IMG/VR virus record: IMGVR_UViG_3300032216_001965
Coordinates: 11,159 to 75,158 of that record
Source of the DNA: a virus
Taxonomy: Duplodnaviria > Caudoviricetes
DNA length: 64,000 nt
Strand: one strand, 5' to 3'
The notes beneath the pieces were generated by a model. It had not been told where the DNA came from. It saw only the letters and a program-made list of their open reading frames with translations, and searched no databases. This document shows positions 11,154 through 64,000 of this stretch, one piece after another. The position numbers were made by a program, and so were the translations under genes. The first letter of the stretch is position 1. Each line of letters begins with the position of its first letter.

Positions 11154-11161
11154 GGTATACT
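11153..11161 (+). promoter_or_regulatory. Extended -10 promoter (TGGTATACT), leaderless start at 11168
   Basis: 6 nt upstream of ATG; no SD. Confidence 0.6.
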
Positions 11162-32447: not shown

Positions 32448-35400
32448 ATGTCTTACGTAGGCTTACACGTACATACTCATTACTCGTTATTTGACGGGAT
32501 TGCTACTCCAGAAGAATACATTGACCGTGCAGTTGAGTTAGGGATGCCAGCAATTGCCATCACTGACCACGGTACTTTATCTGGGCATAGGGAACTGCAC
32601 CGTATTGCAAAAGCAAAGGGTATTAAGCCTATACTTGGCGTAGAAGGCTATATGTGTAAAGATAGATTTGATACTAGAGATAAGTCTGAAAGAGACGGAG
32701 ATCTAGATCTAGTTTATAACCATATAGTACTTCTCGCCAAGAACCAAATTGGTTTAGAGAATTTAAATAAGATTAGTGAGATATCTTGGACAGAAGGATA
32801 CTTTAAAAAGCCAAGGTTTGATTTTGAAATTCTTGAAAAGTATTCTGAAGGAATTATAGTAACATCTGCATGTCCAAGTAGTGTATTGGTAAAAGCACTT
32901 GAAAATAATGAATTTGCTATAGCAAAAGATTATATTCAATGGTTTAAGCGTGTTTTTAATGATGACTATTATATTGAGGTCATGCCCCATAATGAAGCAG
33001 AGATAAATAAACAACTAATTCAATTGGCAGATGAGTTTGGTGTAAAGGTTGTTGTAACTCCAGACTGTCATCATAGTTCTACTGATCAAAAAGAGATTCA
33101 AGAGTTTAAGTTGCTACTTAATACACATGTTAAGATTGACAAAGAGCACACTTTTGAAAAATCTAAAAAGCAGCCAGACATGATGAAAAGGCTTGATTAT
33201 CTTTATGGTGAAGACCGTCAAATAACATTTAACAAGTTTGACATTCATTTACTTTCTTATGAAGAAATGAAGACTGCTATGGAAGTACAAGGTATTGATC
33301 GTCCAGATATTTATGCAAATACTTTAGAGATTGCTGAAAAAGTTGTTGACTATGGAATTCAAGAAGGACTAGACCTACTTCCAGTACAATATAAAAATCC
33401 AGATAAAGAATTAAAAGAACTTGCACTTGCTGGATTAACTGAGCGTGGTGTAGATGGTCAAGATTATTTGGATAGACTTGATGAAGAGTTGCAAGTAATT
33501 AAAGATAAAAAGTTTGCTCCTTATTTTTTGGTTGTACGCAATATGATTGCATGGGCAAAAAAAGAAGAGATTATGGTAGGTCCTGGTCGTGGATCTGCAG
33601 CAGGTTCATTGTTATGTTACGCACTAAGAATTACTGATATTGATCCAATTAAACATAAACTTTTGTTCTTCCGTTTTATTAATCCAGATCGAAATGACTT
33701 TCCAGATATTGATACAGATATTCAAGACTCTCGTCGTGAAGAGGTAAAGGATTATCTTGTTAGACAATATCGACATGTTGCATCTATTGCTACATTTCTT
33801 TCTTTTAAAGATAAGGGTGTGGTACGAGATGTTGCACGAGTTTTAAATATCCCACTTACTGATGTCAATAAGGTTCTTAAACTTGTTGATACATGGGATG
33901 AATATTGTACATCAAAAACAACACGAGAATTCCGTGATAAATATCCAGAAGTAGAAATTTATGGAGAACAACTTCGAGGTCGCATTAGAGGTACTGGTAT
34001 TCACGCTGCTGGTGTTGTAACAAGTAAAGACCCTATTTTTAGGTACGCCCCAATGGAGACACGCTCTTCTACTGGCAGTGATGAGCGCATTCCTGTTGTT
34101 GCAGTTGACATGGAAGAGGCTGAAAAGATTGGCCTTATTAAGATTGATGCACTTGGACTAAAAACTCTTTCAGTTCTTAAAGACACACTTGATATTATTG
34201 AAGAAAGAAATAAAAAGAAGATTGACCTTCTTAATATTGATATGGATGACAAGAATGTTTATCAAATGCTTTCAGATGGATATACAAAGGGTGTATTCCA
34301 GTGTGAAGCAGCACCATACACAAATTTGCTAATTAAAATGGGTGTAAAAAATCTTTCAGAACTTGCTGCTTCAAATGCTCTAGTTCGTCCAGGTGCAATG
34401 AATACAATTGGTAAAGATTATATTGAGCGTAAACATGGTCGTCAAAACATTGGGTATACTCACCAAGTACTAAAAGAGTTTACGGAGGAAACATATGGTT
34501 GTATTCTTTACCAGGAACAAGTTATGCAAGCATGCGTATCGCTTGGCGGTATGTCCATGTCGGAAGCAGATAAAGTTAGAAAGATCATTGGAAAGAAAAA
34601 AGATGCTAAAGAATTTGATCAGTTTAAGGAAAAGTTTGTAGAGGGTGCATCAAAGTTTGTCTCACCAAATATGGCTAAAGATCTTTGGCATGACTTTGAG
34701 GCTCATGCAGGGTACTCATTTAATAAGTCTCATGCAGTAGCATACTCAACGCTATCATACTGGACAGCATGGCTTAAGTATCACTACCCACTAGAGTTTA
34801 TGTACTCACTACTAAAGAATGAAAAGGATAAAGATGCAAGAACTGAATACCTTATTGAGGCAAAAAGAATGGGGATTAGCATTAAACTACCTCACATTAA
34901 TGACTCAGATATTGATTTTAAGATTGAAGGCAAAGGCATTAGATTTGGCCTTACTGCTATTAAATATATTTCCGATAAAATTGCAGAGCGTTACATTTCT
35001 GCAAGACCTTTCTCATCGTATGCTCAACTTGAAGAGTTTACTTTTACTAAAGGAAATGGAGTTAACTCTCGTGCTCTTCAAGCATTACGAGTTATCGGTG
35101 CAGCGACATTTAATGATAATGCAAGAAATGAAGAAGAGATTAAGCAAAATCTCTACGAATATCTAAATCTACCAGAATTTAATATTACCGTTCCATCTCA
35201 TTATTATGGTTTTATCACAGAGGCTCAAGACTATGAAGAAAAAGGTTCGTTGATTGTAATGGGTATGGTAAAATCTATTAAAAGAGCAAAAGGTTGGTCA
35301 AGAGTAGAAGTACTTGATAAAACAGGAAGTGTAGGAATTTTTGATGATGAGCAAACAACCATTGAGGCAGGTTTATCATATATCATTCTTGTTAATGATA

Positions 35401-35720
35401 ATAGGATTCTTTCTGCTATCCCTATCGATCAAATAAAAACATCAACATCTGGTCTTATTAAGTTTTTAAATTACAAACAATTACCATATAAAGATAATGA
35501 GATGTTTGTTTTGTCATTTAAACCAAGAATTACAAAGACTGGAAAAAAGATGGCATCTTTAACAGTTGCAGATACAGCAAGAGATTTACACTCTATTACA
35601 GTTTTTCCAACTTCATTTGCAAAAGCATATATGAAAATTGAAGAAGGAAATGCATATAATTTTAGTTTAGGAAAAACAAAAGATGGAACCGTTATATTGG
35701 AGGATATAAATGTCAGTTAG
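32448..35720 (+). CDS. dnaE: DNA polymerase III alpha subunit
   Basis: PHP LHVHTHYS..DG, TDHG; GPGRGSAAGSL; PDIDTD; YSFNKSHA; no intein evident. Confidence 0.96.
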   Translation: MSYVGLHVHTHYSLFDGIATPEEYIDRAVELGMPAIAITDHGTLSGHRELHRIAKAKGIKPILGVEGYMCKDRFDTRDKSERDGDLDLVYNHIVLLAKNQIGLENLNKISEISWTEGYFKKPRFDFEILEKYSEGIIVTSACPSSVLVKALENNEFAIAKDYIQWFKRVFNDDYYIEVMPHNEAEINKQLIQLADEFGVKVVVTPDCHHSSTDQKEIQEFKLLLNTHVKIDKEHTFEKSKKQPDMMKRLDYLYGEDRQITFNKFDIHLLSYEEMKTAMEVQGIDRPDIYANTLEIAEKVVDYGIQEGLDLLPVQYKNPDKELKELALAGLTERGVDGQDYLDRLDEELQVIKDKKFAPYFLVVRNMIAWAKKEEIMVGPGRGSAAGSLLCYALRITDIDPIKHKLLFFRFINPDRNDFPDIDTDIQDSRREEVKDYLVRQYRHVASIATFLSFKDKGVVRDVARVLNIPLTDVNKVLKLVDTWDEYCTSKTTREFRDKYPEVEIYGEQLRGRIRGTGIHAAGVVTSKDPIFRYAPMETRSSTGSDERIPVVAVDMEEAEKIGLIKIDALGLKTLSVLKDTLDIIEERNKKKIDLLNIDMDDKNVYQMLSDGYTKGVFQCEAAPYTNLLIKMGVKNLSELAASNALVRPGAMNTIGKDYIERKHGRQNIGYTHQVLKEFTEETYGCILYQEQVMQACVSLGGMSMSEADKVRKIIGKKKDAKEFDQFKEKFVEGASKFVSPNMAKDLWHDFEAHAGYSFNKSHAVAYSTLSYWTAWLKYHYPLEFMYSLLKNEKDKDARTEYLIEAKRMGISIKLPHINDSDIDFKIEGKGIRFGLTAIKYISDKIAERYISARPFSSYAQLEEFTFTKGNGVNSRALQALRVIGAATFNDNARNEEEIKQNLYEYLNLPEFNITVPSHYYGFITEAQDYEEKGSLIVMGMVKSIKRAKGWSRVEVLDKTGSVGIFDDEQTTIEAGLSYIILVNDNRILSAIPIDQIKTSTSGLIKFLNYKQLPYKDNEMFVLSFKPRITKTGKKMASLTVADTARDLHSITVFPTSFAKAYMKIEEGNAYNFSLGKTKDGTVILEDINVS

Positions 35721-58356: not shown

Positions 58357-58641
58357 ATGTCAAAACACAAATGGAAAGATGAAGGTTCTTGTTTTGAATA
58401 TGATACAAATATATTTTTTGAAAAATATGAAGATGAGGTTGACTTAAGGTTAGCAATAGACAAGTTATGTTCTAGTTGCCCTGTTGCAAAAACCTGCTTT
58501 GCACATGGAATATCTGGAAAAGAGTGGGGTGTTTGGGGCGGTATATATTTAGAAAATGGAATTATTTCAAAAGAGTTTAACTCTCATAAAGAAAAACAAG
58601 ACTGGGCAAGAACTTGGCAATACTTAACGATGGATCAATAA
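58357..58641 (+). CDS. whiB: WhiB-family Fe-S transcription factor
   Basis: C...IFF...CSSCPV..C...GVWGG. Confidence 0.9.
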   Translation: MSKHKWKDEGSCFEYDTNIFFEKYEDEVDLRLAIDKLCSSCPVAKTCFAHGISGKEWGVWGGIYLENGIISKEFNSHKEKQDWARTWQYLTMDQ

Positions 58642-61974: not shown

Positions 61975-62250
61975 ATGAATGAACAAACAAAAGCACTACT
62001 AGCATCATACGGACGCTCAGTTCTTGGTGCAGCACTTGCACTATATATGTCTGGGGTAACAGATCCCAAGACACTTGCATACTCACTATTGGCTGCGATT
62101 GCTCCAGTAGCATTGAGAGCACTTAATCCAAACGATACAGCATTTGGTCTTTTGCCAGAAGCATCAGTAGTTGAAACAGCAGTCAAGAAGGCTACAGTCA
62201 AGAAGGCACCTGCAAAGCGTGTTGTTAAAAAAGCATCACCAAAAAAGTAA
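61975..62250 (+). CDS. Holin-like membrane protein
   Basis: SD AGGAGG; two TMs, LRALNPND motif, Lys-rich tail. Confidence 0.6.
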   Translation: MNEQTKALLASYGRSVLGAALALYMSGVTDPKTLAYSLLAAIAPVALRALNPNDTAFGLLPEASVVETAVKKATVKKAPAKRVVKKASPKK

Positions 62251-62260
62251 AAATAAATTA

Positions 62261-62299
62261 AAATAGGCTAGGAGAATAAAACCTCTTAGCCTATTTTTA
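62261..62299. terminator. Probable bidirectional terminator between convergent genes
   Basis: AAATAGGCTAGGAG-loop-CTCTTAGCCTATTTTT, flanked by A and T tracts. Confidence 0.75.
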
Positions 62300-62875
62300 T
62301 GTATTAATTATGCTAGTTGCTTGATTAAAAAGTTCATAACAATGAGATAAGTTTTGTTTTTTTATAATTAAATTTATTTCATTATATATTTGTTGATTTT
62401 TAGATGTTTTTAAAAAATTTACACTTGGATCATCTTTAACAAAATTTTGAAAATTATTTGTTTTTATTTCTAAGTTTAATTTATTAGCAACTGAATATAT
62501 AATATCTTTTGTGTTAAATATTAATTTTTTAAAATCAATAACTATGTCAGAATTTTTTAAAATTATACTATAAAAATTTTCATATTCTTTTATTCTAGTA
62601 TTAATTTTATTTTTAATAAGTAAATCTATATCTTCTTTATATGTTTTTTGTAAATCTTCATAATACGTATACTCCATTGTTATCAATGATGATATAGACT
62701 CTAAGGGATCCCTAATAATTGTTACTATGTTTTCATAATCAAACAATATGTCTTCTTTATCTCCTTCATGTAAATGAGTGTATGGCAACTTTACAAATGT
62801 ATTATGTGCAAATGTAGAAACAAAAAATGTTTTTCCAGATCTTGGGTATGTTGCAACAATGCAGTTTACAGACAT
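62297..62875 (-). CDS. Sulfotransferase-family (P-loop) protein
   Basis: VATYPRSGKTF (5'-PSB loop), IIRDPLESISS (3'-PB). Confidence 0.75.
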   Translation of the reverse strand: MSVNCIVATYPRSGKTFFVSTFAHNTFVKLPYTHLHEGDKEDILFDYENIVTIIRDPLESISSLITMEYTYYEDLQKTYKEDIDLLIKNKINTRIKEYENFYSIILKNSDIVIDFKKLIFNTKDIIYSVANKLNLEIKTNNFQNFVKDDPSVNFLKTSKNQQIYNEINLIIKKQNLSHCYELFNQATSIINT

Positions 62876-63408
62876 ATTTTTTCCAAATCATTATATATAT
62901 CAATACACTCTTTTATTTGTTTGCAATCTTTTAAAATTATCTTTACATCATTGTAAAATTTTAAATTTTTGCTGGAAACTATATATCCATCTGTGTGTCC
63001 ATCTTTCCATATTGGAACATCAATATCATTATTTATTGGTTTTAAATTTAGTTTTTCATACAAAGAACTTAAAGTTTTTTGAGGATCTTCCATAAGTTTT
63101 TTATAAGAAATAAAAACATCTGCTATATTTTTAATATCTTTATAAAACATAATATATTTTAGTAAAGAATAGTTACAAGATTGAAGTATTACCTTTTCAT
63201 TGATTATTTTATTATTTTTATCATTTTTTAAAGTCATAGATACATGAGAAGAAATTGTGTCTATTGGATTTCTTACAGTTGTTATTAAAATATCTGATTT
63301 TTCATTTTTTGCAAAGTGCGTTGTATTTATTTTAACACTTATTTGTTGTAGCAAGTACCCATGCAATAAGTGTTGACCAGTTCTTGGATATGTTGATAAA
63401 AGTATCAT
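62866..63408 (-). CDS. Sulfotransferase-family (P-loop) protein
   Basis: LSTYPRTGQH, VRNPIDTISS, ISYKKL. Confidence 0.72.
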   Translation of the reverse strand: MILLSTYPRTGQHLLHGYLLQQISVKINTTHFAKNEKSDILITTVRNPIDTISSHVSMTLKNDKNNKIINEKVILQSCNYSLLKYIMFYKDIKNIADVFISYKKLMEDPQKTLSSLYEKLNLKPINNDIDVPIWKDGHTDGYIVSSKNLKFYNDVKIILKDCKQIKECIDIYNDLEKICL

Positions 63409-63415
63409 ATAATTA

Positions 63416-63424
63416 ATTATATCA
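63416..63424 (-). promoter_or_regulatory. Extended -10 (TGATATAAT) for sulfotransferase pair, leaderless
   Basis: 7 nt upstream of ATG 63408 on minus strand. Confidence 0.55.
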
Positions 63425-63446
63425 CCTGCTACAATTTATTAATTTA

Positions 63447-63455
63447 TGATACAAT
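63447..63455 (+). promoter_or_regulatory. Extended -10 (TGATACAAT) for hsp20
   Basis: Predicts TSS near 63462, the base of the first leader hairpin. Confidence 0.55.
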
Positions 63456-63461
63456 ATACAT

Positions 63462-63515
63462 ACCTGCCCATATGGGGGGTAAACTAACTTATTCGCTTGA
63501 AAGGGGAATAATATG
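63462..63515 (+). promoter_or_regulatory. ROSE-like RNA thermometer in hsp20 leader
   Basis: SD-sequestering hairpin UUAUUC-(G)-CUU-GAAA-GGGGAAUAA with UCGCU motif and bulged G. Confidence 0.6.
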
Positions 63516-63917
63516 ATGAAAACAGCACTGGATCTTTTTAATGATCCATTTTTTAACACCTTCTCAAATCTTCAGAAGGTAACAACAACAACAAACTATC
63601 CACCTTATAATCAAATCAAACTGAATGATACAGAATATATTCTTTCATTTGCTTTGGCTGGGTTTTCTAAAGATGATGTTTCAGTATCGCTAGACAATCG
63701 CAAACTTACAATCAAGGGCGAGAAGCATGATACTGAATTGCCACAGGGTGCAGAGTATCTACATAAGGGAATTGCTGCTCGCAAATTCACAGATATCTTT
63801 ACTCTTCCTGAGTTTGTAGAAGTTGTTGGGGCTGAATTCAAGGATGGTATCCTAGATATCAGACTTGAGAAGCAGATCCCAGAAGATAAATTACCAAAGA
63901 CTATTGAAATTCAGTAG
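63513..63917 (+). CDS. Small heat shock protein (Hsp20/IbpA-like)
   Basis: YPPYN, ALAGFSK, YLHKGIAARKF, GAEFKDGIL.I.L. Confidence 0.93.
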   Translation: MMKTALDLFNDPFFNTFSNLQKVTTTTNYPPYNQIKLNDTEYILSFALAGFSKDDVSVSLDNRKLTIKGEKHDTELPQGAEYLHKGIAARKFTDIFTLPEFVEVVGAEFKDGILDIRLEKQIPEDKLPKTIEIQ

Positions 63918-63927
63918 TACAATATAT

Positions 63928-64000
63928 ATCTGCACCTCGTCACTGAGGTGTCGCAGATTTTGTCGGGGGTGACAGCGACATTAAATAACTGGTATAGTCC
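63928..64000 (+). ncRNA. Candidate structured RNA (two hairpins, kissing loops), truncated by window edge
   Basis: TACAAT at 63918-23; paired stems and complementary loops; family not recognised. Confidence 0.3.

Follow-up and report, generated by a model that had tools for sequence, protein, structure and literature searches.

A conserved two-hairpin, ROSE-like leader of phage hsp20 genes and its possible action as an RNA thermometer in a probable actinophage

Background

ROSE-type RNA thermometers are textbook regulators of bacterial small heat-shock genes. An RNA thermometer is also present in phage lambda, where the cIII mRNA adopts two alternative structures and is translated in a temperature-dependent manner, 37°C being favoured over 45°C. 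ROSE elements are defined by the motif U(U/C)GCU, imperfect pairing with the Shine-Dalgarno sequence (SD) in the 3'-proximal hairpin, a predicted bulged G, and location in the 5' UTR of a small heat-shock protein (sHSP) gene, and ROSE-like elements contain one to three further hairpins upstream (PMC3669281, PMC11342760). The ibpA leader of Pseudomonas is short and consists of two hairpins, the second of which (hairpin II) suffices by itself (PMC3669281, Krajewski et al. 2013), and hairpins of this design have been proven to act as thermometers in both Pseudomonas and E. coli (PMC3669281). Gamma-proteobacterial IbpA also controls its own synthesis: it binds to the ROSE-type 5' UTR of ibpA and keeps translation repressed until it is titrated away by aggregates; Arg93 is essential for this activity, an aromatic residue is needed at position 34, and the positive charges of R97 and K98 are required (PMC10474464).

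A literature search outside subscription journals yielded no paper linking phage hsp20 genes to a thermometer or to ROSE, and the papers on cyanophage sHSPs make no mention of any leader. A preliminary description of the DNA analysed here had proposed a ROSE-like thermometer controlling a phage hsp20 gene, outside the range in which such elements were known. As far as the searchable literature goes, this remains correct; however, the leader turned out to be widespread on phage hsp20 genes and to occur on those of SAR11 bacteria themselves. No publication on SAR11 hsp20 leaders was found, and the comparison with them given below is that of the present analysis.

The hsp20 gene and the architecture of its leader

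The window, i.e. the whole 64-kb stretch of DNA that was analysed (positions 11,159 to 75,158 of the IMG/VR record IMGVR_UViG_3300032216_001965, a virus record of 75 kb that is about 68% complete), contains hsp20 at 63513–63917 on the plus strand, encoding a small heat-shock protein of 134 aa. Its membership of the Hsp20/alpha-crystallin family (PF00011, E 5.8e-17) bears out the assignment made in the preliminary description. The protein shares 37% identity with E. coli IbpA and 42% identity with Hsp20 of Pelagibacter phage HTVC008M, and the closest cellular hsp20 genes are found in Pelagibacteraceae and Alteromonas.

The region upstream of hsp20 contains, on the same strand, an extended -10 promoter element, TGATACAAT (63447–63455), of the pattern TGnTATAAT, followed after a spacer of six bases by hairpin 1 (63461–63481). 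In the MFE fold, the latter has the form UACCU-[G63466]-CCC / loop AUAU / GGG-GGGUA. Inspection of the sequence gives the pairs A63462-U63480, C63463-G63479, C63464-G63478 and U63465-G63477, and C63467–63469 with G63476–63474, leaving G63466 unpaired, with U63461-A63481 as a possible extra pair. A single-stranded linker, AACUAAC (63482–63488), which is unpaired in both the MFE and the centroid folds and differs in length and sequence across relatives, separates hairpin 1 from the SD-masking hairpin 2 (63489–63511), UUAUUC-[G63495]-CUU / loop GAAA / GGG-GAAUAA. Here U63489–C63494 pair with G63506–A63511 and C63496–U63498 with G63505–G63503, closing on the loop GAAA (63499–63502). The ROSE motif UCGCU (63493–63497) faces the SD GGGGA (63503–63507), which is entirely paired within the hairpin and lies 5 nt 5' of the AUG; a single base separates the end of the helix (63511) from the AUG at 63513. 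From the position of TGATACAAT, transcription probably starts at about 63461–63463, which would give a leader of approximately 51 nt.

Compared with the ROSE definition, the 3'-proximal hairpin of the window carries U(U/C)GCU on its 5' strand, in imperfect pairing with the SD, and a G (G63495) opposite the SD that is unpaired in all predicted folds. A further hairpin is present upstream and a small heat-shock gene downstream, and, judging from the promoter position, the element would belong to the 5' UTR. The preliminary description had set out the two hairpins pair by pair; every pair that it gave was found in the sequence, and UCGCU, the unpaired G63495, the GAAA tetraloop and the SD 5 nt before the AUG are all present base for base.

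RNAfold returned both hairpins as the MFE and centroid structures of the leader (-15.3 kcal/mol, z -1.55), while hairpin 2 by itself gave a z of -2.99, with 1 of 200 shuffles being equally good. The register of hairpin 2 preferred by RNAfold (C63496-G63504, U63497-G63503 and U63498-A63502, with the loop GAA and G63495 opposite G63505) and the register given above, which is that of the preliminary description, are nearly equivalent by the model. In predicted occlusion of the ribosome-binding site (RBS), hsp20 ranks 8 among the 66 genes of the window and is not an outlier in its own genome. By these predictions, folding energy alone does not set the leader apart from chance. Within the window, RBS occlusion was predicted to be strongest, at 13.9 kcal/mol (20°C), in the start region of a 1090-aa ORF (32448–35720, plus strand), whose start call is crude.

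Relation to known ROSE elements

Searching the window against Rfam at E ≤ 10 gave chance snoRNA-like matches only and no thermometer family. The preliminary description had suggested a comparison with the ROSE models, i.e. ROSE (RF00435), ROSE_2 (RF01832, gathering threshold 65 bits) and ROSE_3 (RF02523, 43 bits), and this went against it, the window leader matching none of the three even at that E value; a ROSE_3 search over the whole 75-kb virus record gave no match. In relatives, the ROSE_3 alignment covered all 69 positions of the model and coincided exactly with the leader, with all scores below 43 bits: Methylophilales phage Melnitz (L431; 34.1 bits, E 2e-4), locus L344 (28.8), phage C48C1 (L433; 26.8), locus L363 (25.0), Synechococcus phages S-SM2 (L428; 24.9) and Syn1 (L432; 21.6), locus L263 (21.6), and Prochlorococcus phage P-SSM2 (L429; 16.7). 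Another relative, L326, scored 22.8 bits on ROSE_2, below the threshold of 65. The cores shared with the ROSE_3 consensus are 'AU-[G]-CC...GGG' in hairpin 1 and 'CUcGCU...AGGAG' in hairpin 2.

A covariance model built from phage leaders (R1) had a single match in the 64-kb window, at 63462–63515 (60 bits, E 7e-12). Across 100 sources, it gave one match each in 90, always ending at the hsp20 AUG, and SAR11 chromosomal hsp20 leaders, including that of Ca. Pelagibacter ubique HIMB4, scored 39–52 bits. As judged from motif and homology, and not by Rfam threshold, the element is a divergent member of the short ROSE-like group.

The ibpA leader of Pseudomonas (ROSE_3) resembles that of the window in having two hairpins in a UTR of about 50–60 nt, a hairpin 1 core U-[G]-CC...GGG, a hairpin 2 in which CU(C/U)GCU pairs with the SD and leaves a G unpaired, and an AUG just outside the helix, and in controlling an IbpA-type sHSP gene. 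The window leader differs in that i) its stem is longer by four A-U pairs (UUAU/AUAA), ii) its SD is GGGGA, with two G-U pairs, and it does not have the G-C pairs flanking the core in Pseudomonas, and iii) it follows an extended -10 promoter of the constitutive type instead of a sigma-32 promoter, in a probable actinophage. The E. coli ibpA 5' UTR (ROSE_2, RF01832) likewise has a CUCGCU core facing AGGAG and an unpaired G, its sensing hairpin is close to hairpin 2 of the window in predicted stability, and both sHSPs are of the IbpA type; however, it is about 105 nt long, contains more hairpins and is sigma-32 dependent, and the window has no ROSE_2 match. The lambda cIII element is, like the window leader, a phage-encoded mRNA structure, the temperature dependence of the latter being predicted, but it is unrelated in sequence, acts by another mechanism and belongs to a lysis-lysogeny regulator, not a chaperone gene.

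The closest cellular counterparts found were the SAR11 hsp20 leaders (e.g. HIMB4, L511), which agree with the phage leaders in their two hairpins, spacing and motifs and precede genes for Hsp20 proteins 37–46% identical to that of the window. They differ in their sigma-32-like promoter (CTTGAAA...CCCATAT), short hairpin 2 (CUUGCUU/AAGGAG) and canonical SD. The order of sigma-32-like promoter and two-hairpin ROSE-like leader was seen in HIMB4 (L511, 450–546), L509, L488 and others.

Conservation and covariation

The close clade consisted of 80 IMG/VR loci with hsp20 genes 93–97% identical, all 80 of which have the leader; 81 sequences were compared. None of the 23 sites of hairpin 2 varied in these sequences, whereas the base right after it (position -1) had a pi of 0.54 and 88 of the 134 third codon positions were variable. 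If these sites varied at the rate of third codon positions, invariance at all 23 would have a probability of about 2e-11. In hairpin 1 the loop varies and the stems are kept, the outer pair being A-U, G-U or G-C. Since the sequence 5' of the promoter differs among the loci, the conserved unit consists of promoter, leader and gene.

More distant hsp20 proteins were used as queries for distant loci, in which the motif was located by the pattern [CU]U[CU]GC[UC]...SD...AUG. Of 373 phage hsp20 loci, 362, with 163 distinct leaders among them, showed the motif-SD-AUG architecture, which extended to proteins only about 37% identical. Cultured phages carrying it include Synechococcus phages S-SM2 and Syn1, Prochlorococcus phage P-SSM2, Pelagibacter phages HTVC008M and HTVC115P, Methylophilales phage Melnitz, and phage C48C1; among the hsp20 loci of cultured phages, it was not evident in Vibrio phage PWH3a-P1. 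Hairpin 2 of most relatives consists of CUC-[G]-CUU opposite AAG-GAG, which is the exact ROSE design, and the window clade differs from them by a change of the core-adjoining pair from C-G to U-A and by four added A-U pairs.

For pair counts, the leaders were parsed with the unpaired G as anchor, requiring outer pairs 1–3 and inner pairs 1–2 of hairpin 1 and outer pairs 1–2 of hairpin 2, and only pairs beyond those required were taken as free tests. MAFFT- and model-based alignments (A1, A2 and A3) were not used for this purpose, as they placed the 3' strands in shifting registers. Hairpin 1 with its unpaired G was found in all 164 distinct leaders, with 80 versions of the outer stem, and its parse had a mean score of 21.5, compared with 4.4 in shuffled sequence. 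In an ungapped, fixed-length set of 35 distinct sequences, 95% of the hairpin 1 cells were paired (65% in shuffles), the covariation score was 0.825 (0.234 when shuffled; 0 of 500 shuffles as high; slid partners ≤0.22), and 6 of the 8 pairs showed changes on both sides. The two outermost informative pairs, which the parse does not require, each occurred as four Watson-Crick types.

The corresponding set for hairpin 2 contained 17 distinct sequences, in all of which the seven core pairs were paired, with a covariation score of 0.225 (0.145 when shuffled; 0 of 500 as high; slid partners ≤0.10). Among all distinct leaders, in which the core pairs are retained throughout, the third outer pair was C-G in 88, U-A in 72 and U-G in 4, and the fourth, where the helix reaches that far, was A-U, U-A or C-G. 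Support from covariation for hairpin 2 is modest, because the ROSE motif limits change on one strand and the SD on the other, and it may stem from few evolutionary events. Across the 164 distinct leaders, the unpaired G is invariant in both hairpins even though it has no pairing partner. The covariation in hsp20 leaders of related phages that had been put forward as a check was thus found in both helices, strongly in hairpin 1.

Variants were also observed. In the distant leaders L332 and L335, CUUACUU replaces CUUGCUU, i.e. the unpaired G is changed to A. In five marine phage loci (L333, L365, L371, L328 and L331, at about 700–773), hairpin 1 and the SD hairpin are separated by an additional one, GCCGGUUUAAAACGGC, resulting in a three-hairpin ROSE-like form. 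Eight loci (L398, L390, L312, L374, L387, L378, L377 and L278; leader at about 749–803) share the 23-nt hairpin 2 of the window without change, in a near-identical leader that precedes hsp20 alleles 47–56% identical to the window protein. Some of these loci share the upstream context as well, and similarity breaks at the start codon, which suggests that alleles may have been replaced by recombination with the leader as anchor.

Promoter, genomic setting and identity of the phage

The TGnTATAAT element lies at a constant distance from hairpin 1 in all 47 distinct leaders of the close clade. A second element of the pattern TGnTAYAAT, TGCTACAAT (63427–63435, plus strand), is a possible further promoter, the two forming a tandem 20 nt apart 5' of hsp20; in the close-clade comparison, only TGATACAAT is conserved. 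Two promoter classes feed the same leader, namely TGnTATAAT in the freshwater group and TATAAATA, of the T4 late-promoter type, in the marine T4-like group; the presence of both before one leader speaks for action of the conserved element at the RNA level. In four freshwater metatranscriptome runs, contigs of relatives, which reach upstream to about 63476, span hairpin 2 and the coding sequence, with no cover beyond that point; being contigs, they are uninformative on transcription start, strand and expression level.

Right after the hsp20 stop codon (63918–63962), TACAAT is followed by a 31-nt hairpin (63928–63958) and UUUG, the window ending at 64000. This hairpin could be a weak terminator of a single-gene cassette or the start of a structured RNA noted earlier. 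On the 5' side, one relative (L295, 1–706) has an array of five tRNAs directly before the hsp20 promoter and leader, and several others have a tRNA-like 3' end just 5' of the promoter.

The host of this lake phage is probably an actinobacterium, as the preliminary description had supposed, which is reasonable but unproven. The main evidence is a WhiB-family gene (58357–58641, plus strand; PF02467 at 58372–58545, 44 bits, above cut-off), which retains the WGVWGG motif; among the control genomes, PF02467 was found in Corynebacterium only. WhiB is a hallmark of actinobacteria and their phages. Further evidence comes from the portal and major capsid proteins, which are 47% (over 98% of the length) and 38% identical, respectively, to those of Streptomyces BE-cluster siphophages. 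SD-like motifs precede 30 of 66 ORFs of the window, compared with 4 of 66 in a control region, suggesting that the host uses SD sequences, and TGnTAYAAT occurs 16 times on the plus strand and 2 times on the minus strand. With SD use and this strand bias, both the masking of an SD and a host promoter of the sigma-70/sigma-A type would be sensible.

A blastn search with window positions 62000–64000 against cultured phages gave no match. The exact 17-mer of hairpin 2 matched 55 times in 596 Gb of genomes, about 69 matches being estimated by chance, and the real leader was present in only one of them, L129 (also L436; CANGYR010000020.1). This 22.9-kb contig is phage-like, contains an hsp20 cassette 95% identical to that of the window and was binned in a Chitinophagaceae MAG. 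It was probably misplaced by binning, and its placement, which conflicts with the actinobacterial signals, was not taken as evidence on the host.

Predicted stability of hairpin 2

By prediction, opening the SD costs 7.9 kcal/mol at 20°C and 5.8 kcal/mol at 37°C. Hairpin 2 of the window has predicted energies of -8.5 kcal/mol at 20°C and -5.2 kcal/mol at 37°C and a two-state Tm of 78.5°C, the validated E. coli ibpA hairpin -7.1 and -4.6 kcal/mol and 78.0°C, and the short variants of other phages and SAR11 -3.7 to -5.2 kcal/mol at 20°C and 60–64°C. With G63495 deleted in silico, the predicted Tm was 16°C higher, in keeping with the 'lock-off' mutant proposed in the preliminary description.

The validated E. 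coli ibpA thermometer switches at 30–42°C, above the usual temperatures of lakes. The nearest-neighbour model plainly overestimates absolute stability, equally for this hairpin and for that of the window. The E. coli-like stability of hairpin 2 suggests a switch point above normal lake temperatures, so that the hairpin might stay closed in nature; it might open if its real stability is lower or if another factor acts.

Thermometer model and alternative explanations

We consider it likely, with some reserve, that the leader is a two-hairpin ROSE-like translational thermometer for the phage hsp20 gene. What the analysis shows is its structure, conservation, covariation, restriction to hsp20 and kinship; that it senses temperature is inferred. 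The leader is related by descent to the SAR11 hsp20 leaders and, more distantly, to Pseudomonas ibpA (ROSE_3), the sigma-32-type promoter of SAR11 hsp20 having presumably been replaced in the phage copies by constitutive or phage-late promoters. In the window, transcription would start from the host-type extended -10 promoter, placing hairpin 1 at the extreme 5' end of the mRNA, where it probably stabilises the message and aids the independent folding of hairpin 2. In hairpin 2, UUAUUC-G-CUU pairs with GGGGAAUAA, so that the SD lies in a helix which two G-U pairs and an unpaired G, or a G-G mismatch, make weak. When it is cold, 30S subunits would be mostly excluded from the SD; as temperature rises, the weak helix would open gradually and hsp20 would be translated in proportion to heat, resulting in a heat-responsive supply of chaperone independent of host heat-shock transcription.

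The invariance of the loop and of the unpaired G exceeds the needs of a simple melting helix, and a bound factor could be involved. An invariant GAAA loop and unpaired G suit protein recognition better than pure melting, and the leader might mainly be an operator through which Hsp20 represses its own synthesis, translation resuming when aggregates titrate the protein away; temperature would then act only indirectly, in a way compatible with thermometer action. We judge this unlikely as the main function, though it merits consideration. It has a precedent in the E. coli-type IbpA acting on its ROSE-type UTR (PMC10474464), and the window Hsp20 conserves both R90, which aligns with R93 of IbpA, and Y29, which aligns with Y34. 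However, the required positive charges are missing, D94 and I95 occupying the positions of R97 and K98, and demonstrations of self-repression come from gamma-proteobacteria only, so that for phage sHSPs it would be assumed by analogy. A different proposal, to which we assign a low probability, is that the leader senses nothing and is a constitutive attenuator and mRNA stabiliser, with hairpin 1 guarding the 5' end and hairpin 2 holding down the translation of an abundant transcript at every temperature that the phage encounters. Lake water rarely exceeds 30°C, and opening of the SD is predicted to be costly over 5–30°C (9.7 to 6.7 kcal/mol); the promoter is of a strong, constitutive type, and other genes of the window equal or exceed hsp20 in predicted RBS occlusion. 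Yet an attenuator would require neither the precise ROSE motif, with its invariant and helix-weakening unpaired G, nor restriction to chaperone genes, the R1 matches being always at hsp20. The predicted stability is overestimated to the same extent for the validated E. coli hairpin, and in Pseudomonas and E. coli this design has been proven to work as a thermometer (PMC3669281).

It is highly improbable that the hairpins are chance folds whose conservation merely reflects hitch-hiking on a recently spread gene cassette. The z of the whole leader is modest, and an identical leader before hsp20 alleles only about 50% identical could reflect recent recombination; however, compensating changes maintain the architecture down to 37% protein identity, the leader is found behind two promoter classes and in cellular SAR11 genomes, and position -1 and synonymous sites vary freely beside the invariant hairpin 2. 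As far as sequence comparison can tell, the leader is clearly more than a chance fold, because of its conservation and covariation and not because of its energy.

Implications

Particular to the window phage are a host that is probably actinobacterial, a longer stem whose SD is GGGGA, and the constitutive promoter, together with a hairpin 2 that is completely invariant in the clade, even before hsp20 alleles about 50% identical. Since a promoter of the constitutive type precedes the leader, the RNA would be the sole heat-responsive step, and such RNA-only control would let the phage match chaperone output to temperature after takeover or loss of host transcription.

More tentatively, and with somewhat more doubt than confidence, leader and hsp20 may be seen as a self-contained, portable sensor of heat or aggregation, which originated in alpha-proteobacteria of the SAR11 type and spread among phages of different host phyla (cyanobacteria, SAR11, Methylophilales and here probably actinobacteria), with the promoter alone being exchanged. 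If this is true, lytic phages would widely sense temperature independently of host sigma factors, and a ROSE-type switch would work in a Gram-positive, high-GC host lineage; we know of no ROSE-type switch on sHSP genes of such a lineage. The family, found at hundreds of phage loci behind two promoter classes and also on SAR11 chromosomes, is a testable case of a regulatory RNA travelling with its gene across host phyla, and its natural variants, with predicted Tm values from 60 to 78°C, offer material for studying how thermometers are tuned to habitats.
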